Both the position numbers and the translations under genes were made by a program. DNA of 64,000 nucleotides from Escherichia phage 121Q: sequence record NC_025447.1; one strand, given 5' to 3'. Shown piece after piece: positions 8,842-50,404 of this stretch. How positions within the stretch are numbered: the stretch's first letter is position 1; each line of letters opens with the position of its first letter. A model generated the notes under the pieces. The model made no database searches, was not told where the DNA came from, and saw nothing but the letters and a program-made list of their open reading frames with translations.

Positions 8842-9483
8842 ATGACTAAGCAAGAAATATTCAAAACTTTAATTGACATTTTGCGTCCATCAAAAACTCG
8901 TTGTGCGATGGAGTTTGATATTCCTTATGCTGAACGCGTAATCTTTCCACAAGTTAAAGCTGCTGGACTTACTTTGCTTGGAATGGGGATGTACTCTGTA
9001 GTAGTTGAACATAAAAACTATCCTGGGCGTGCATTTAAAGTAACCACTTCACGCTGGGATGGTTTTCGTGCTTATGCAAAGTACTGCATTGAAAACGCAG
9101 GAACCAAGTTTCTTCCAGTGATCTACAGTGCCAACGAACAAGGAAACTTTGGATGGTATGAGATGGACAAGTACTATCCTATAATTAAACAAAAAAATAA
9201 TTATGATGACTTTGTTAGTACTAAAATTGGAGATTTATATTCTTATGCACATGCTGGTCAGTACGCTACTTCAGTGAATGATATGCGTGGTAATTCTGAA
9301 GAGATTGCTATTGCAACGGTCGCTGCTAACATCATGAAAGAGTTTCACGGGCGTTTTGTACCAGACATTCATTCAAGTAATGTAATGATGGATAAAGATG
9401 GGAATGTATTCATTACTGATCCTCTTTCGTGTGATGTGCGTAGAGAAATACCAATTACTGAAGAAGATCCAGTTTTTTATTGA
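8842..9483 (+). CDS. protein kinase-like protein
   Basis: ATG 8842 with SD AGAGGA (track start 8809 lies in terminator); Gly-rich loop GMGMYSVV, AFKV lysine, D-x4-N and ITDP motifs near C-terminus. Confidence 0.55.
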   Translation: MTKQEIFKTLIDILRPSKTRCAMEFDIPYAERVIFPQVKAAGLTLLGMGMYSVVVEHKNYPGRAFKVTTSRWDGFRAYAKYCIENAGTKFLPVIYSANEQGNFGWYEMDKYYPIIKQKNNYDDFVSTKIGDLYSYAHAGQYATSVNDMRGNSEEIAIATVAANIMKEFHGRFVPDIHSSNVMMDKDGNVFITDPLSCDVRREIPITEEDPVFY

Positions 9484-9544
9484 CAGAACTGATGTTCTGG
9501 TGTATTCTTAATAAACCATAAAAATTGCGGTAAAGGATAAAATC

Positions 9545-9826
9545 ATGCGTTCATTTGAAAACTTAATAGGTAAGCATCTTTTATCTGAAATTGATGCAGA
9601 CGTTAAAGAATTATCCAAATCAAAAAGTTACATTCATTTGGATGAACTGTTTATTAAGTACGGTGAGATTGGTTTTAAGTCATTATTTGTTTTTACTATG
9701 AAAGTACATAGTTTAAAGTACTTCGATTTGAGTACTAAAGATGGTGAACCGAATCTATATTACATGTATTACCTTAAGAACAAAGATGAAGCTAATACAT
9801 TACTCTCTGAATATATATTGGGGTAA
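9545..9826 (+). CDS. hypothetical protein
   Basis: 93-aa ORF with SD AAGGA. Confidence 0.6.
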   Translation: MRSFENLIGKHLLSEIDADVKELSKSKSYIHLDELFIKYGEIGFKSLFVFTMKVHSLKYFDLSTKDGEPNLYYMYYLKNKDEANTLLSEYILG

Positions 9827-9828
9827 AA

Positions 9829-10167
9829 ATGGAACAATATTTTGAATTAATAAACAAAGTATCATTTTATGTAGTATCTTTGGTTTGGGTGTATTATATG
9901 TTTTGCTATATTATTGCATTCTTCCGATATACTACTTTATATGAACGTATCTACTATGATGCCCCAATTTCATTCTTGATGTTTTGTGCCTGTACGTGGG
10001 GAATATTAGAAGTACTGATATGTGGGTATAGTACTGATGAATTAAATCTGGTATCGGTGTTGACTGGGTTTTCATTTGTTGTTATGATAGCTGCCGTTCC
10101 AGTATGGTTGTTCTTTGGACTAGTTCATCGCATTGATATATGGCGTTCTAATATCCCTGAAAAGTAA
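9829..10167 (+). CDS. membrane protein, cluster-1 paralog
   Basis: hydrophobic; ends with basic tail and NIPEK, similar to next two genes. Confidence 0.6.
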   Translation: MEQYFELINKVSFYVVSLVWVYYMFCYIIAFFRYTTLYERIYYDAPISFLMFCACTWGILEVLICGYSTDELNLVSVLTGFSFVVMIAAVPVWLFFGLVHRIDIWRSNIPEK

Positions 10168-10170
10168 GGA

Positions 10171-10518
10171 TTGGTAATGATTTATTACACTAACATGTTT
10201 GCCTATGCTGTTGCTTGCATTTACATTGTTTACTTCTTATTCGGTGGAGTACTGTGCTTCTTTAAGTACAAAACGTTGTTCAACCGAATGTACCCAAATC
10301 ATCCAATTGTAGTTGTACTTTTGATTCTTTCAGTTTCTCAAATAATCGTTGAAACTACAATGGGTATCAGTAGTGTACATTATAGTTTTGGTACTATAGT
10401 AATTATTACTATGCTTATTGCATACATTTTAGTACTTGGATATGGTATCTTTGGTAATATTGGTATGAAAATGTATCATCGAATTAAAACATTACGTGAT
10501 AATCTACCGGAGCGTTGA
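10171..10518 (+). CDS. membrane protein, cluster-1 paralog
   Basis: SD AAGGA; paralogous to 9829 gene; ends NLPER. Confidence 0.6.
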   Translation: MVMIYYTNMFAYAVACIYIVYFLFGGVLCFFKYKTLFNRMYPNHPIVVVLLILSVSQIIVETTMGISSVHYSFGTIVIITMLIAYILVLGYGIFGNIGMKMYHRIKTLRDNLPER

Positions 10519-35357: not shown

Positions 35358-35585
35358 ATGACAAATACTCTTAAGTACTACCTCAATACTCTAAATGAAC
35401 TAGAGTACGGGGAGTTTCTCTCGGATAGTTCGTGGCTAATTGAGCTAAAAAATTATAATAGTCCAGGATGCACCCTTATGATGAACAATGCAATTGATAC
35501 CCTCATTGTGAGTATTTTACACAGCAACATCTGCGGGGATAGCAATAAACAATTATCAAAAATCTTAGTACTGCTATCTATATGA
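35358..35585 (+). CDS. S-array small protein
   Basis: first gene of tandem small-ORF array, SD AAGGAG. Confidence 0.55.
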   Translation: MTNTLKYYLNTLNELEYGEFLSDSSWLIELKNYNSPGCTLMMNNAIDTLIVSILHSNICGDSNKQLSKILVLLSI

Positions 35586-35785
35586 ATATCGAACAGTACT
35601 ACATCGATGCACTACCAACAAAAGGTCTACGAGAAAGCCTACTGTATACACAAAATACTATTATACACTACAAACGTTGTCCTAAACTCCTGAACTCGTA
35701 CAGGAATAATATCATAAGAAATGCTTTACAAGGGGCAGAAAGTATGCAATACTATTATATCCTTGCCCTTTTAATCGAGTACTAA
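35582..35785 (+). CDS. S-array small protein
   Basis: tandem small paralog; C-terminal YYILALLIEY-type tail. Confidence 0.55.
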   Translation: MNIEQYYIDALPTKGLRESLLYTQNTIIHYKRCPKLLNSYRNNIIRNALQGAESMQYYYILALLIEY

Positions 35786-35786
35786 T

Positions 35787-35996
35787 ATGAATACTGAACA
35801 TAAAGAATTCTACACCAAATACCTTAGCAACGAAGAACAATTGTTTCTAAGGAGTGTATCACCTTTAAGTATAGATACACCACACGCCAGAGATTGCTTT
35901 AATAATTGTATACGTAGTACTCTAGAAGCAATCGAATGTAATAACAAAAATATTATGTACTCTGGTTTAATAGGACTAATATATTTCTATGAATAA
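35787..35996 (+). CDS. S-array small protein
   Basis: N-term MNTEHKEFY, C-term LIYFYE; abuts neighbours. Confidence 0.6.
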   Translation: MNTEHKEFYTKYLSNEEQLFLRSVSPLSIDTPHARDCFNNCIRSTLEAIECNNKNIMYSGLIGLIYFYE

Positions 35997-36183
35997 TCAT
36001 AAAGATTTCTATTGTAGTAAACTACCCAAACAAGAACAGCTATCATTCTCTTTAGCACCACCTATGAGAAAGGATAATCTGTATTATAATTACGATTTCA
36101 GGATGGTGACACGTTATGCAATAGAACATACGTTCCCTGCAACTAAGTACCGCTCTATCCTGAACCTCATCTTTAAGTTCTAA
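35989..36183 (+). CDS. S-array small protein
   Basis: N-term MNNHKDFY; start overlaps upstream stop. Confidence 0.6.
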   Translation: MNNHKDFYCSKLPKQEQLSFSLAPPMRKDNLYYNYDFRMVTRYAIEHTFPATKYRSILNLIFKF

Positions 36184-36235
36184 AAGGTACACCAGGGACC
36201 GAGTACTTTAATATAGTAAGGCTAATTACATTATA

Positions 36236-36421
36236 ATGAATCATATAAGCTACTACTACCAACAACTATCCGACAGAGACAAGTACAGTCACAACTCCCA
36301 TGTGTGGTACTACAAACGCGGCAGTATAAGAGACAAACAACATTACTTCTGTATTTCTATTAAAGAAGCACTAACAACTAAGTACACGTACCGAGCAGTA
36401 CTTAAACTTATTGAAATGTAA
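36236..36421 (+). CDS. S-array small protein
   Basis: 61-aa tandem paralog, C-term VLKLIEM. Confidence 0.55.
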   Translation: MNHISYYYQQLSDRDKYSHNSHVWYYKRGSIRDKQHYFCISIKEALTTKYTYRAVLKLIEM

Positions 36422-36429
36422 GGAAGAAA

Positions 36430-36612
36430 ATGAATATAGAATTCTATTTAACTAAACTACAACACGCCGAAAGATTCAACTTCAATAAGTTCAATATTTT
36501 CTACAATTGCGGGAACAAAAAAGATAAACACACCTTCCTATATGTCGTCACAAGAGATGCACAAAACGAAAAGTACACATACAGAGAAGTAATGAAACTA
36601 ATCGCTATTTAA
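36430..36612 (+). CDS. S-array small protein
   Basis: SD AAGGAAG; C-term VMKLIAI. Confidence 0.55.
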   Translation: MNIEFYLTKLQHAERFNFNKFNIFYNCGNKKDKHTFLYVVTRDAQNEKYTYREVMKLIAI

Positions 36613-36620
36613 GGAATACT

Positions 36621-36800
36621 ATGCAACAATTCTATATAGAACGTATAACCATAAAAGACCGTTTCATGTACGACACCTTCGTTGATTACTACAACCTAGG
36701 AACAAAAAGTACTAAAAATATTAATCTCAATAGCTGCATTTATGCTGTACTAACACAAGATAATCCCTACAGGGAAATCCTCGCACTGGCATCTATATAA
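36621..36800 (+). CDS. S-array small protein (59 aa)
   Basis: not in ORF track; ATG 36621 with SD AAGGAA; fills array gap. Confidence 0.5.
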   Translation: MQQFYIERITIKDRFMYDTFVDYYNLGTKSTKNINLNSCIYAVLTQDNPYREILALASI

Positions 36801-36810
36801 AGGAAACCAA

Positions 36811-37482
36811 ATGAAACTTAATGCACACAGCAAACAATACCTTAAGCACTTTAAGTACCTCAATAGTATTCAGGCAGAATCCGTTACATCTGCATATACG
36901 TATCACCCGAATGTACTAAAGAAACGAAATAAAAAGGAAAAATCCAGTACAAATGGAGTTAACGTATCAAAGAACCTTGAATTGTACATGAAGAAAAATA
37001 ATATAGCTGTTCATTATATGAATATCTATAATACTGATTTAAAAGTATTGAGTACTAATACGAGCACGAAGGTACTAAAGAACGCATCCTTCATCATCAA
37101 TATGCAGTTGGATAATACCCCGTGCACTTTAATGCTATACTTCGGGAATACATACTTCTTCGGGAATTGTAACACCTCCCACGATGTCAATACAGCACAA
37201 TTCCAAATGGGTGGCATATACTCTACTGATGCAGAAAAAGTACACGAGAATATGCACTTCTGGCAAGCACAACGTACAGAAGAAACTAAATCAATTGTAG
37301 ATTTCCTCAAAGAACTAGAACACAAAGAACTACAGGAAGAAGAACTATTCATGTACAGTACTGTAATCGATAATCCAGTACTCTATAAAAACGCGTACAA
37401 TCTGACAAAACATGTACAGGAAATTATCAGTACTAATAAGAAAATGCATCACCTCATTACGTATATTACAAACTATGTATAA
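36811..37482 (+). CDS. hypothetical protein embedded in S array (223 aa)
   Basis: SD AAGGAAA; larger ORF unlike neighbours. Confidence 0.6.
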   Translation: MKLNAHSKQYLKHFKYLNSIQAESVTSAYTYHPNVLKKRNKKEKSSTNGVNVSKNLELYMKKNNIAVHYMNIYNTDLKVLSTNTSTKVLKNASFIINMQLDNTPCTLMLYFGNTYFFGNCNTSHDVNTAQFQMGGIYSTDAEKVHENMHFWQAQRTEETKSIVDFLKELEHKELQEEELFMYSTVIDNPVLYKNAYNLTKHVQEIISTNKKMHHLITYITNYV

Positions 37483-37657
37483 AGAATACTATATCTCTAA
37501 ACTACCCGTGCAGCAAAAATACTTTGCTGCATACAAAGTTCTTCTCATAACTCGTGCCGCTCGATCTAACTACATGAATAGCGTAAAACGTGCTATAGAA
37601 AATGATGACGCAATGAACCAGTACTATAACATTTTACTACTAATATATAAGTACTAA
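37475..37657 (+). CDS. S-array small protein
   Basis: start MYKEYY at 37475 overlapping upstream stop; C-term LLLIYKY. Confidence 0.6.
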   Translation: MYKEYYISKLPVQQKYFAAYKVLLITRAARSNYMNSVKRAIENDDAMNQYYNILLLIYKY

Positions 37658-37667
37658 AGAGAACAAC

Positions 37668-37850
37668 ATGCACAAAGAATACTACAGGGATAAAATACCT
37701 ATGCATCTCCAGCACCATATACCAACAGAACCAATAGGAATAAAAGATCACGCAAAGATAATGTTCCAACAATGTACTAAGTACACGCTCATATACGATG
37801 ATAATCCATATATGCTGTACTACGTAGTAATGCTAACATTCAGGTACTAA
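37668..37850 (+). CDS. S-array small protein
   Basis: MHKEYY...MLTFRY. Confidence 0.6.
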   Translation: MHKEYYRDKIPMHLQHHIPTEPIGIKDHAKIMFQQCTKYTLIYDDNPYMLYYVVMLTFRY

Positions 37851-37851
37851 T

Positions 37852-38043
37852 ATGAATAACCACAAAGAATACTACATAGAGAAACTCCCAATGTATCTCC
37901 AACACCTTGTACCAACAGAACCATTGGGTATAGAAAAAAACTACGAAAAAGACTACTTCATTCAGTGCACTAAATCCTCGATATATATTGAAGACTATAA
38001 TCGAGTACTGTATCACATCCTTTTACTAATATATAAGTACTAA
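37852..38043 (+). CDS. S-array small protein
   Basis: MNNHKEYY...LLLIYKY; 1 nt from upstream stop. Confidence 0.6.
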   Translation: MNNHKEYYIEKLPMYLQHLVPTEPLGIEKNYEKDYFIQCTKSSIYIEDYNRVLYHILLLIYKY

Positions 38044-38044
38044 T

Positions 38045-38227
38045 ATGCACAAAGAATACTACACACAATTTCTCCCCAGCATTTTTGAACACTACGCCAG
38101 ATATAAAGTCCCTCTGGATAACGATTTGGCAGTACTGGGATTCAATAACTGCATAGAACGAAGTATAGAAAATAGTAGTAGTTATGACCAGCTATATAAC
38201 ACTATCCTACTTATATTCAGGTACTAA
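38045..38227 (+). CDS. S-array small protein
   Basis: MHKEYY...ILLIFRY. Confidence 0.6.
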   Translation: MHKEYYTQFLPSIFEHYARYKVPLDNDLAVLGFNNCIERSIENSSSYDQLYNTILLIFRY

Positions 38228-38228
38228 C

Positions 38229-38417
38229 ATGCATAAAGAATACTACACAAAATATTTCCCAATGTACCTCAGAACTAATCTATTAGATAAACCTCGCGGT
38301 ATCAATGCACAAAATGATAAAGTGTATTTTACTATGTGCACTAAAGCATGTATACTAGATTTTGACAGCTACCATCGAGTACTGTATCATACCCTGTACC
38401 TAGCTTTCGTATTCTAA
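38229..38417 (+). CDS. S-array small protein
   Basis: start MHKEYY at 38229 (track start 38184 is internal to upstream gene). Confidence 0.6.
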   Translation: MHKEYYTKYFPMYLRTNLLDKPRGINAQNDKVYFTMCTKACILDFDSYHRVLYHTLYLAFVF

Positions 38418-38426
38418 GAGAACAAT

Positions 38427-38612
38427 ATGCATAAAGAATTCTACTTAAGCCATCTGGATCTAAACTCCCAAATGCTTATACCACTAATCCCAATAGATAT
38501 CAAGGATAAGAAAAATACCGAACAATTCATTTACCATACACAGTGTGCGATCACCCCAAATTACATTCCATATGAATTGTACTACATTCTCGCCCTAATA
38601 TATAGGTACTAA
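38427..38612 (+). CDS. S-array small protein
   Basis: MHKEFY...LALIYRY. Confidence 0.6.
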   Translation: MHKEFYLSHLDLNSQMLIPLIPIDIKDKKNTEQFIYHTQCAITPNYIPYELYYILALIYRY

Positions 38613-38613
38613 T

Positions 38614-38799
38614 ATGCATAGAGAATACTACACACAATTTGTTAAAGGGAACTACAAACATGCCGTACCCAGAACCCCTTTAAATTCTCATGACCCAAGT
38701 ACTATATTCTTGTTTAATGACGCAATACGTACAGTACTCAATACTAAAGATGAAGATGTGCAGTACGTATTCTTACTATTACTTATATACAGACACTAA
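38614..38799 (+). CDS. S-array small protein
   Basis: MHREYY...LLLIYRH. Confidence 0.6.
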   Translation: MHREYYTQFVKGNYKHAVPRTPLNSHDPSTIFLFNDAIRTVLNTKDEDVQYVFLLLLIYRH

Positions 38800-38804
38800 C
38801 TAAT

Positions 38805-38987
38805 ATGAATAAAGAACATAAAGAATTCTATATAAGAAAACTAACATTCGTCCCCGTAAGAATATATAAAGAATGCGACCCAAGATTATACCTATGGCAC
38901 TTCAATGAGTGCATAAAAGATTCTATATACCCTAAGAACTATAAAGAACAATTGTGCTCAGTACTAACACTAGTACTATCATATTAA
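38805..38987 (+). CDS. S-array small protein
   Basis: MNKEHKEFY...LVLSY. Confidence 0.6.
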   Translation: MNKEHKEFYIRKLTFVPVRIYKECDPRLYLWHFNECIKDSIYPKNYKEQLCSVLTLVLSY

Positions 38988-39002
38988 TTAATAGAGAATA
39001 CT

Positions 39003-39194
39003 ATGTATAAAAACTTCTATATAAGTAAACTAAAAGAAAATGAACAAGTATGGATTAGATCTATAATTCCACTGGCATTTAATAGATATGCATTTAACAG
39101 ATGTACCGAGATTGCTATAGACCCTTATAATATTAAAGAGAATGTACAGTATAATCAGTACTACTATATCTTAATGCTTATATATAGGAAGTAA
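39003..39194 (+). CDS. S-array small protein
   Basis: MYKNFY...LMLIYRK; last array member. Confidence 0.6.
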   Translation: MYKNFYISKLKENEQVWIRSIIPLAFNRYAFNRCTEIAIDPYNIKENVQYNQYYYILMLIYRK

Positions 39195-39307
39195 TTAAAC
39201 ACAAGTAGACAGGGGAAGCTCCTAGTGAACAACCTTTATGTACAGGCGAATTGTTAAAATTCAGCCTGGACAAATGCGATCACTAGGATTCTCCCCAGGC
39301 TAAACCC

Positions 39308-39400
39308 CGTAATCATAGGTAGTCATAAGTAATCATATATAAACATTTAAGTAATCATTTATAATCACTGTAGTGATCAGTAGTGATCAGTAGTGAGTAC
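39308..39400. repeat. GTAATCA repeat cluster plus three tandem TAGTGATCAG units
   Basis: GTAATCA-like heptamer about five times in 60 bp, then TAGTGATCAG x3 (GATC-containing); more GTAATCA copies at 39520-39560. Confidence 0.6.
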
Positions 39401-40229
39401 TAGAGTACAGGAATGTTCACGTTTAATCAAGAACGTAGCAGTACTGATATGCCACTAAGTAGGCAGAGGAAGTCTGCCGTACTTTGTAGTTTCCAAGCTC
39501 CTTTTCCATTTTGCAAATTACATCAAATGTAATCAAAAGTAATCACGCAATGATTAGTACTGAATTATTACTTTCACCTTAATTTCAATTACCCCTTTAC
39601 CCTTCGGGGTAAAATTCAATTACCCCTTGAGGCTCCAGCAAAAAGTTGGTTAGTACTCCATCCTAAATCTCGATCCTAAAAATTTTGGAGTACCTATGAA
39701 ATAAAAGTTGGATCTTCGAAAGTTGAAATTTACGTTGGGACATATAGGATTTGTGGGATATAATGAGTTTTGTAGCGATACAGATTATACGATTTCAGTA
39801 CTGAATAATGAAAGAAAGCTATTGACATTATGATTCAGTACTGTATAATGTTCTACATAGAGAGATGAGTTGCTGCGAACAATTCATTTACTCTACCTCC
39901 TGTCGTGAGACAGTACAGAAAAGATAGTTCCTCCTGTGGTGGTACATCTTTTTGAACCTCATATGAAAATCGTAATAACAGTACTGATATTAACAGAATG
40001 GTGTCAGTACTGATTTTAATCTAAAGCATTATGCCACCAGCTTGTGCTGGTGGATTCCCTCTAACAGTATTCAGTACTACATGATAGTCTTCATCCTCCT
40101 ACAGTAACAGTGAGGGCTATTGTGGCAGTACTGAATACTCCCTTTCAAAAGATAGATCTATGGTATAGTACTGACGGATTTTGGGCGTAGTAACCCTAGG
40201 TTGAATTTAGACGTAGAGATGTCTAGACC

Positions 40230-40362
40230 TCCAGATGGCTGGAAGTAAAGATGGCTATCCCTCTAGGCGGCTGGATGGCTAGATTTCTAGATGGCTGTAC
40301 TGCTAGACGTTTGGACGGCTAAACGGCTAGATGGTTACACGTCTGGATGTATAGACGGCTAA
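40230..40362. repeat. iteron-like array of about 9 short direct repeats (CTAGATGGCT / GGACGGCT units)
   Basis: (A/G)GA(T/C)GGCT recurs about 9 times in 130 bp, immediately followed by an AT-rich tract (40363-40392). Confidence 0.6.
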
Positions 40363-40545
40363 ATCAAAATTTTTATTTTATTTTTTCCAATAGTTCCCCT
40401 ACCGCGTGGGGATGGTTTCCCCGCAGTATCTGGAGTTAGATTTTTCTGAATCTGGAATCATTATCCCCGTTTTCGCCTGGTATGTCAACCGTCTGGATGA
40501 ATAATTTTAAAAAATAATCTAGTACTGAATTTTGGGCGTAACTAT

Positions 40546-40558
40546 GCACCCGGTGGGC
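40546..40558 (-). repeat. dispersed CTAGCCCACNGGGTGC element copy (reverse orientation)
   Basis: GCACCCGGTGGGC followed by TAG. Confidence 0.5.
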
Positions 40559-41076
40559 TAGAGTCTTTCTCGACTTGATAAAAATATTATAGCAGTACTG
40601 AATTATAAAAGCAATAGCCTGGATGTAAAAAGTTTTAATTAATTTGCTTGTCATCCTGGGGCGTACTATGGTACTATGATTCAGTACTGAGAAAGTGCTA
40701 TGACCTGCTAAGGTGCGGGAGTGTATCCTTTTTAAATTTACTGAATTTTGGGCGTAATTCCGCACCCCCTGGGGTATCCGCTTTCTCGCGTCTATGTAGT
40801 AATTATACGCTTTTTTAGTACTGAGTCAATAGCTAAAAACAAAATAATTGAAAATAATTTAACGCGTTTAAACGGCCCGTAAAGCCCTGGTTAGCTGGTG
40901 GCGGTGCAAATGTATAGCTTAGGTGTATTAATGCGTTAGAATGCGATTGAGGACGTTTTACGGGGTATAGTACTGATTCAGTACTGAATAGTAGTACTGA
41001 AAGATTGTTCTCCCTGGATTGTTCCAGTACTCCTATATAGAAAGAAAACTATTTTAAAAGTATTTGTAGAAAGTAC

Positions 41077-44459: not shown

Positions 44460-44487
44460 TTGCAATTAGTTTTCAGTACTGTATAAT
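44460..44487 (+). promoter_or_regulatory. sigma70-like early promoter TTGCAA-N16-TATAAT plus stem-loop
   Basis: TTGCAA 44460, TATAAT 44482, GGGGGAAATGGTTCTCCCC hairpin, SD AAGGAG. Confidence 0.6.
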
Positions 44488-44824: not shown

Positions 44825-44836
44825 GCACCCTGTGGG
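44825..44836 (-). repeat. dispersed element copy (reverse orientation)
   Basis: GCACCCTGTGGGTTAG inside an about 80-bp block also seen at 42667-42740. Confidence 0.5.
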
Positions 44837-46074: not shown

Positions 46075-46300
46075 TGTCTATAGTATTCCATGCCGTCAGC
46101 ACCTCATAGAATCGATTCTAACGCATTAAACTGATTATCTGATGCATCGCCCTAGCTGGTGGAGTTAAGGCCGTTAGAATGCGATTGAGAGCGTTTAAAG
46201 TATTTTGCAAAAAGTAATAAAAAGTACTTGCACGATTCAGAGATTAGCGTATAATGTTTTACATCAAGGCGAAACACCTTAACTAACTGAGGATATAAAG

Positions 46301-50334: not shown

Positions 50335-50404
50335 ATCATTTACCCTATACAATGCCAGTACTAAACCGTTTAACTCGTTAGAATGCGTTACAGGACGTTT
50401 AACA

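Follow-up and report, generated by a model that had tools for sequence, protein, structure and literature searches.

The 64,000-nucleotide stretch of the Escherichia phage 121Q genome analyzed here (record NC_025447.1, hereafter the window) carries an array of 19 contiguous 8-bp units, all in a single register, at positions 40209-40360 (152 bp, consensus AGAYGKCT). These units match the binding sites of the host methionine repressor MetJ, which binds tandem 8-bp met boxes (consensus AGACGTCT) with one dimer per box. The array lies near a physical terminus of the genome, starting 751 bp inside the end of a direct terminal repeat (DTR) at 39458, and it recurs in three families of phages. Judging from sequence, host MetJ loaded with S-adenosylmethionine (SAM) probably coats the array; with less assurance, we infer that the coated stretch acts in cis at the DTR border. 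The whole reading, in which a MetJ-SAM-coated met-box array would serve as a cis landmark at that border, is in our judgment evenly poised between right and wrong.

A direct-repeat array had already been reported at this place in a first-pass annotation, which described about nine copies of (A/G)GA(T/C)GGCT followed by an AT-rich tract within a gene-free region. Repeats are indeed present at this place, but the array contains no more than six exact GAYGGCT copies and proves to be longer and strictly phased, its true start lying 21 bp to the left of the coordinate then given. Units 1-7 read AGACGTAG AGATGTCT AGACCTCC AGATGGCT ggaagtaa AGATGGCT atccctct, units 8-13 read AGGCGGCT GGATGGCT AGATTTCT AGATGGCT gtactgct AGACGTTT, and units 14-19 read GGACGGCT AAACGGCT AGATGGTT ACACGTCT GGATGTAT AGACGGCT; lower-case units fall below threshold with the Augustus and Spicer matrix introduced below, and no strand is assigned to the array as a whole. 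Tandem Repeats Finder did not report the array at 40209-40360. The AT-rich tract does adjoin it, as AAATCAAAATTTTTATTTTATTTTTT at 40361-40386 (A/T at 25 of 26 positions), and the gene-free stretch is likewise borne out, with no credible gene and no conserved open reading frame (ORF) in 39195-41076, a region without assigned strand that straddles the terminal-repeat boundary. Its sole ORF longer than 60 aa (40436-40765, minus strand, 109 aa) was rejected as a gene because indels of 4 nt and 1 nt disrupt its frame in vB_Ec-M-J, a close relative. Searches for tRNA, tmRNA and Rfam families (at both gathering and E≤1 thresholds) gave no match in the window or in 39195-41076. This region is approximately 90% identical across 40 records of Asteriusvirus-type jumbo coliphages (e.g., PBECO4, phAPEC6, UB and G17), most of which carry no annotation in it.

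For the comparison with met boxes, the matrix of Augustus and Spicer, built from 832 half-sites, was applied with the published criteria, under which each box must reach at least one quarter of the consensus score and a chain of boxes at least the consensus score itself, 12.58 bits (PMC3228920). Sixteen of the 19 units reach the box threshold. The array is far above chance expectation: only three qualifying chains exist in the 64-kb window, all of them inside the array and sharing its register (25.7 bits for one chain of 4 boxes, 25.9 bits for another of 4 and 55.8 bits for a chain of 7), whereas the maximum over 100 simulated 64-kb sequences under the same scan was 3 boxes and 19.4 bits. As a positive control, 5.5 kb of E. 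coli K-12 sequence yielded two hits and no others, the operators of metJ/metB (4 boxes, 31.2 bits) and metF (4 boxes, 24.9 bits). Compared with the published met-box profile, the base frequencies of the array give a correlation of r = 0.90 in register and r ≤ 0.04 in each of the other seven registers; overall, the correlations were 0.77-0.95 in register and at most 0.14 out of register. The agreement extends to the second-choice bases, with A preferred to G at position 1, G to A at position 2, A to C at position 3 and C to T at position 4.

The E. coli MetJ operators (metJ/metB, metF, metA and others) resemble the array in being built of abutting head-to-tail 8-mers with the consensus AGACGTCT, in sharing its secondary base preferences and in passing the same published scan. 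They differ in that natural operators comprise two to five boxes (four in each of those scanned here), compared with 19 units in the phage array, of which seven contiguous ones qualify in the window and as many as 14-16 in relatives; in that they overlap methionine-gene promoters, whereas the phage array lies in a gene-free region and overlaps none; and in that half of the phage units have G at position 6. Because it stands at no met promoter, the array belongs neither to the met regulon nor to its operators, and what is predicted here is binding of MetJ, not regulation of met genes. Moreover, no methionine-related domain was detected by Pfam in the ORFs neighboring the array.

The sheer number of boxes could instead indicate a decoy, in which the arrays titrate MetJ as phage genomes multiply and thereby de-repress host methionine and SAM synthesis for the benefit of the phage. 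With 19 boxes per repeat copy, a packaged genome carries 38, compared with 4 per natural operator in the control scan, and the jumbo relative XbC2 carries several SAM-dependent methyltransferases. However, in infections by T5-like and T7-like phages the host DNA is silenced or destroyed at an early stage, so that de-repression of host genes would be of no help to them, and titration offers no reason for the fixed place near the DTR border in every family. We consider a decoy function improbable.

The place of the array relative to the genome end can be read from related records. A physical genome end, the DTR boundary at 39458, falls within the gene-free region, and the same point borders the other copy of the terminal repeat on its inner side; the repeat itself spans about 20.2 kb (39458-59638, no strand) and is present as a single copy in the window. 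In phage G17, the first gene recurs 350,149 bp downstream, and the G17 DTR therefore corresponds to record positions 1-20668. The last base of the G17 record, read in the orientation of the window, begins AGTAGGCAGAGG and corresponds to window position 39458, while its first base maps to 59638, the other DTR edge. In the vB_Ec-M-J record (annotated DTR 1-21525), the first base maps exactly to 39458. Furthermore, window position 40150 aligns at record positions 696-706 in CRJP21, ELP-22, E9.1, fEgEco12, BF17 and vB_Ec-M-J, and at 696-703 if only the first five are counted, so that the DTR start in these six records is the same within a few nucleotides; in fEgEco12, the terminus has been confirmed experimentally. 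The small genes of the DTR run on the plus strand from 41077, pointing away from the genome end.

Within Asteriusvirus, the number of units varies relative to the window (six fewer in SHEFM2K, two fewer in G17, one more in A4 and in fEgEco12), and array length always differs by a multiple of 8 bp, the one departure being a record flagged UNVERIFIED. Such whole-unit differences in copy number suggest selection on register. The arrays of relatives reach 12-14 contiguous boxes and 89-105 bits. Distant relatives with the array were found by BLAST, and the further cases of PR1, PGT2, phiKT and the uncultured contigs described below by a pattern scan of IMG/VR. In the Rak2-like phages CBB, Serratia BF and XbC2, an array in the same register is located 650-750 bp into the record, the start of which is the DTR terminus (based on read depth and pulsed-field gel electrophoresis for CBB and on PhageTerm for XbC2). 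The array of GAP32 occupies the homologous region, its record having a different start, and the record of Yersinia phage fHe-Yen9-04 starts within the array. Among the genera that keep the array, the flanks have diverged to a mean column identity of about 64%, with register and terminus distance retained. A neutral minisatellite, expanding and contracting by slippage without any function, would account for the variable copy number among close relatives, and some uncultured viral contigs do contain monotonous 8-bp satellites (e.g., GGATGGCT repeated 13 times). Here, however, the units are heterogeneous and yet keep the same informative positions, register and terminus distance have held across genera despite the divergence of the flanks, and the array recurs in other families, all of which makes this explanation scarcely credible.

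Outside the jumbo phages, the array was found in T5-like siphoviruses of the Demerecviridae, including Aeromonas phage AhSzw-1 (16 contiguous boxes, 139 bits), Vibrio phage pVp-1 and Vibrio phage Pontus. Providencia phage PR1, also T5-like, has nine near-consensus boxes (88.5 bits) at 9620-9691, with DnaA boxes on one side and, on the other, a CCCTCTGCGC motif matching the annotated 7.9% nick sequence of T5; its left terminal repeat (LTR) ends at 10461, and the array is 770 bp from that inner end. The arrays of PR1 and AhSzw-1, after A2 or in the annotated LTR, occupy equivalent positions, and those of pVp-1 and Pontus, whose DTR ends are unannotated, are followed by T5-type nick-like and DRD motifs or lie in a non-coding stretch. 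The T7-like podoviruses PGT2 and phiKT, both coliphages, also carry the array; the DTR of PGT2, 260 bp long, contains it at both genome ends, at positions 38-109 and once more 151 bp from the right end. Even longer arrays occur in uncultured IMG/VR contigs, with 36 contiguous units and 356 bits in one (L036, 7257-7544) and 34 units and 272 bits in another (L040, 4513-4784), the latter from a 120-kb contig of T5-like size; the nearest relative of one uncultured array-bearing contig is a Pseudoalteromonas phage. Relative to the early genes, the array has opposite orientations in jumbo and T5-like phages, which suits a symmetric dimer as the binder. As a separate observation on the T5-like sequences, the array in AhSzw-1 (L007, 3620-3700) and Pontus (L013, 3130-3170) is immediately followed by CCCTCCTGCGCC, which resembles the T5 7.9%-nick sequence, and then by copies or a variant of the T5 DRD repeat (GTGCAAATCCGACA; AGTACTTATCCGACA in AhSzw-1).

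The distribution of MetJ is in keeping with a host-encoded binder. E. coli encodes metJ, and MetJ occurs only in Enterobacterales, Pasteurellales, Vibrionales, Aeromonadales and Alteromonadales; the array-bearing phages infect Escherichia, Salmonella, Erwinia, Yersinia, Serratia, Pectobacterium, Cronobacter, Klebsiella, Providencia, Vibrio and Aeromonas, all within MetJ-bearing orders, the host of Xanthomonas phage XbC2 being the only exception. No phage-encoded MetJ homolog was found among 50,697 phage records, in which the sole matches were three bacterial-contaminant records, and no ribbon-helix-helix or other DNA-binding domain was detected by Pfam in 20 ORFs beside the arrays of the window, PGT2, PR1, AhSzw-1 and CBB. 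Given that one motif appears in three families with unrelated early and packaging proteins, the simplest explanation would be a shared host protein.

The array might nevertheless be bound by a phage protein, such as a terminase small subunit, a ribbon-helix-helix protein or an unknown early protein, with a met-box likeness that arose by convergence. The departure of position 6 from the met-box profile, where G is about as common as T, and the asymmetry of the units would fit such a protein, and the DTR is full of small ORFs of unknown function that could encode it. Tandem 7-8-bp repeats are, in addition, the typical targets of ribbon-helix-helix proteins such as omega and ParG: the omega heptads of plasmid pSM19035 and the ParG boxes of TP228 are coated by ribbon-helix-helix dimers to form a nucleoprotein filament. 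In those systems, however, the binder is encoded by the plasmid and its gene is adjacent, whereas no such gene was seen beside the phage arrays. A phage-encoded binder would also have to be present with the same specificity in each of three families whose packaging and early proteins are unrelated, against the absence of MetJ homologs from the phage records and of DNA-binding domains from the ORFs beside the arrays, and it would have to share the secondary base preferences of MetJ. On this evidence we consider it unlikely.

Several observations weigh against binding by MetJ or against a common role for it. Position 3 is A in 17 of the 19 units, but position 6 is T in nine and G in ten, compared with 87% T and 10% G in the published profile; the G could weaken one half-site per box, and a different, asymmetric binder could be responsible. 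No promoter is predicted inside 40209-40360, and no methionine gene is located at the array. XbC2 keeps the array although Xanthomonadales are not among the MetJ-bearing orders; the G+C content of this phage, 37.5% compared with 65% in its host, may point to a host shift in the recent past. Nor is the host-range argument an independent one, as Rak2-like and T5-like phages mostly infect gammaproteobacteria anyway. T5 itself and the T5-like phages of E. coli and Salmonella lack the array although their hosts have MetJ, and the array is therefore dispensable for the T5 way of life; in particular, no met-box array was found in Repeat Region 3 of T5. Finally, the distance from array to DTR boundary ranges from 38 to 770 bp across the three families, so a single common mechanism is not assured. 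With these points in mind, we suggest only tentatively, and with somewhat less than an even chance of being right, that three unrelated families of DTR phages (Rak2-like jumbo myoviruses, T5-like siphoviruses and a T7-like podovirus) each recruited host MetJ-SAM as an architectural protein for the ends of their genomes. The longest met-box arrays known would, in that case, tie packaging, end processing or DNA entry to the SAM status of the host.

If MetJ is indeed the binder, a possible sequence of events is as follows. Once the phage DNA is in E. coli, host MetJ loaded with SAM would bind the array cooperatively, one dimer per 8 bp, and produce a protein-coated stretch of about 150 bp. This stretch would form part of a conserved non-coding module 0.75 kb inside the genome end, where it could act as a cis landmark or barrier for events at the DTR border. 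The favored event is terminal-repeat processing and packaging, possibly by a route in which the coated array halts RNA polymerases that run toward the border from flanking promoters, by analogy with the T7 concatemer junction, at which transcription pauses. Alternatively, the coated array might impose a pause in DNA entry resembling the first-step transfer of T5. In the T5-like carriers, the array is beside the counterpart of the T5 7.9% nick (9661-9668); that nick lies about 40 bp from the shear-point estimate of approximately 9618 bp, which is the estimated boundary of first-step transfer in T5.

The module in which the array is embedded consists of elements conserved across genera, namely an inward promoter, the block ATTTTGGGCGTA, the last array units, a T-run, the block TTCCAWTAGYTCCCCTWCCGCG and a hairpin. 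The promoter is a sigma-70-type sequence on the plus strand at 39822-39849 (TTGACA, 16-nt spacer, TATAAT; matching the consensus at all 12 positions). It is 365 bp away from the genome end and directed inward at the array, and its TTGAC is invariant in CBB, Serratia BF and XbC2. Downstream of it on the same strand, at 40034-40053, is a hairpin, CCACCAGCTTGTGCTGGTGG, that is annotated as a terminator in G17 and has an inverted loop in vB_Ec-M-J. It is possible that this hairpin ends an early transcript of about 190 nt, and the interval 39822-40060 (plus strand), with the promoter, the hairpin some 190 nt further on, no ORF and no Rfam match, may be regarded as a candidate early small RNA. The block ATTTTGGGCGTA, immediately before the array, is conserved across genera. 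Directly 3' of the array is the T-rich tract (40361-40386, plus strand), of which other genera keep only the T-run, with G/C interrupting the remainder, followed by the invariant block TTCCAWTAGYTCCCCTWCCGCG and a hairpin at 40400-40428 (together 40385-40428, plus strand, from cross-genus alignment). This block, the hairpin and the last array units constitute the most conserved part of the region, and the hairpin shows compensatory changes in five of its ten predicted pairs across three jumbo-phage genera, with stem variants GGGG/CCCC, CTGG/CCAG and CTAG/CTAG.

A second sigma-70-type promoter, on the minus strand at 40460-40488 (TTGACA, 17-nt spacer, GATAAT; 11 of 12 matches), faces left, in the direction of the array and the DTR end, and no ORF follows it; vB_Ec-M-J retains its hexamers and 17-nt spacing while the spacer sequence has diverged. 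Two more leftward sigma-70-like sites (40629-40602 and 40829-40802, minus strand) also point at the array, again with no gene downstream, so that predicted promoters converge on the array from both sides. Further to the right, a 28-nt block, GCGTTAGAATGCGATTGAGGACGTTTTA, at 40933-40960 (plus strand) is identical at 26 of 28 positions to T5 AY587007 9270-9297, within Repeat Region 3, and has two further copies in the DTR, at 46171-46198 and 50375-50402.

Convergent promoters next to repeats and an AT-rich tract also recall a replication origin, which the first-pass annotation had proposed, with a packaging site as the alternative. Under this explanation, the repeats would bind an initiator and the A/T tract would unwind, perhaps primed by transcription from the flanking promoters as in oriF and oriG of T4. 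The adjacency of the array to a 26-bp tract with 96% A/T, the promoters aimed at array and tract from both sides, and a minimum of cumulative GC skew at about 39.3 kb are all in its favor. However, the iteron-type architecture is unsupported, as the units are contiguous 8-mers unlike iterons, which are roughly 17-22 bp long and in helical phase. DnaA-box matches number 14 in the window, as expected by chance, and none falls in 39195-41076; no initiator-like domain was detected by Pfam in the flanking ORFs; and in the other array-bearing genera the tract includes G/C as well. The T5-like arrays, in turn, lie in the first-step-transfer region, DNA that is present before replication functions enter, whereas the origins of T5 are located mid-genome (Davison). 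As for the skew, its flip at about 39.3 kb is ambiguous as an origin signal, as it coincides with an oddly composed block of ~60-aa ORFs and elsewhere the skew follows the coding strand. An origin at this place therefore appears very improbable. The block in question (35400-39200, plus strand) is a run of paralogous-looking ~60-aa ORFs with a GC skew of about -0.17 and a strongly positive AT skew; its skew is opposite to that of every other plus-strand gene block in the window, and the sign flips at the DTR end.

The packaging-site proposal was closer to the mark, in that a genome end does lie within the gene-free region and arrays are found near DTR boundaries in three families. The array itself, however, is 751 bp from the cut, and other elements flank the cut directly. 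Copies of a 10-bp repeat, GTAATCAWWA, occur on the plus strand on both sides of the terminus, at 39309-39367 outside the DTR and at 39522-39547 inside it (with one additional 10-nt unit in vB_Ec-M-J); the repeat GTAGTGATCA is present in 2.7 copies beside the DTR cut (39370-39396, plus strand); and a hairpin, GGCAGAGGAAGTCTGCC, starts 4 nt inside the genome end (39462-39478, plus strand). These three elements are likely candidates for terminase recognition or cut-region functions, and the GTAATCA repeats are better candidates for terminase recognition than the 8-bp array.

Several known systems share individual features with this region. In T5, Repeat Region 3 (9194-10409) spans the end of the left terminal repeat at 10139; like the gene-free region of the window, it is an untranslated, repeat-dense region of 1.2-1.9 kb that straddles the DTR boundary, with early genes pointing away. 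The host-factor sites proposed there are DnaA boxes, of which the gene-free region of the window has none, including the paired IRD'/IRC' boxes. The two regions share the 28-nt block GCGTTAGAATGCGATTGAGGACGTTTTA, and T5-like phages of Providencia, Vibrio and Aeromonas carry the array at the place where T5 has none. The elements of the T7 concatemer junction are arrays of short repeats next to the terminal repeat, the promoter phiOR and the pause site CJ. The junction thus resembles the window in combining short repeats and a pausing element near a DTR boundary with a promoter firing toward it, but the repeats of T7, of the CCTAAAG type, do not form phased 8-mers, and its pause is a property of T7 RNA polymerase itself and involves no bound host protein. 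At cosB of lambda, the host DNA-binding protein IHF assists terminase from one site within about 100 bp of the nick. The likeness lies in a host architectural protein acting in cis near a packaging cut, as predicted here, although lambda has a single site near its nick and the window a 19-site array 751 bp from the end.

Host DNA-binding proteins are known to be co-opted by phages at key cis sites, examples being IHF at lambda cos and, as a proposal, DnaA at the injection-stop region of T5. Host-factor sites in such regions are therefore already known, and what is new is MetJ as a candidate factor at one of them. The papers on G17, CBB, fEgEco12 and XbC2 and Davison's analysis of T5 do not mention the array or MetJ, and the searchable full-text literature contains nothing relevant on MetJ or met boxes in phages, including their terminal repeats. 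If MetJ does coat these arrays, a metabolic sensor of SAM would be linked to the handling of phage genome ends, which would provide a handle on what marks the T5-type first-step-transfer or terminal-repeat border and on how long terminal repeats are recognized and duplicated, and would suggest a T5-like terminal architecture in Rak2-like jumbo phages. Most jumbo-phage assemblies have been deposited without defined termini, and the array can also serve as a simple annotation marker of where they physically end.

Other sequence features of the window were noted in passing. A resemblance between the conserved CCCCTWCCGCG after the array and CCCT(CC)TGCGC at the T5 7.9% nick was considered and set aside as an ambiguous or weak lead, as the two motifs differ; the BF23 paper offers no nick consensus for comparison. 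A module consisting of TACTGAATTTTGGGCGTAA and a GCACCCNNTGGG motif occurs three times in the gene-free region (40170-40190, 40523-40591 and 40739-40807), with related copies upstream of DTR genes (e.g., near 44830, 49000 and 56000), and may be part of an early-promoter cassette. In addition, the octamer AGTACTGA, often present as the palindrome TCAGTACTGA, has 102 copies in the 64 kb compared with 2.7 expected, both within and between genes, and 21 of these copies lie in 39155-41000. It fills the spacer of several consensus sigma-70-type promoters, including the one at 39822-39849 and minus-strand promoters near 44473, 48475, 56361 and 58322, and might represent the site of a phage-specific regulator or a self-marker.

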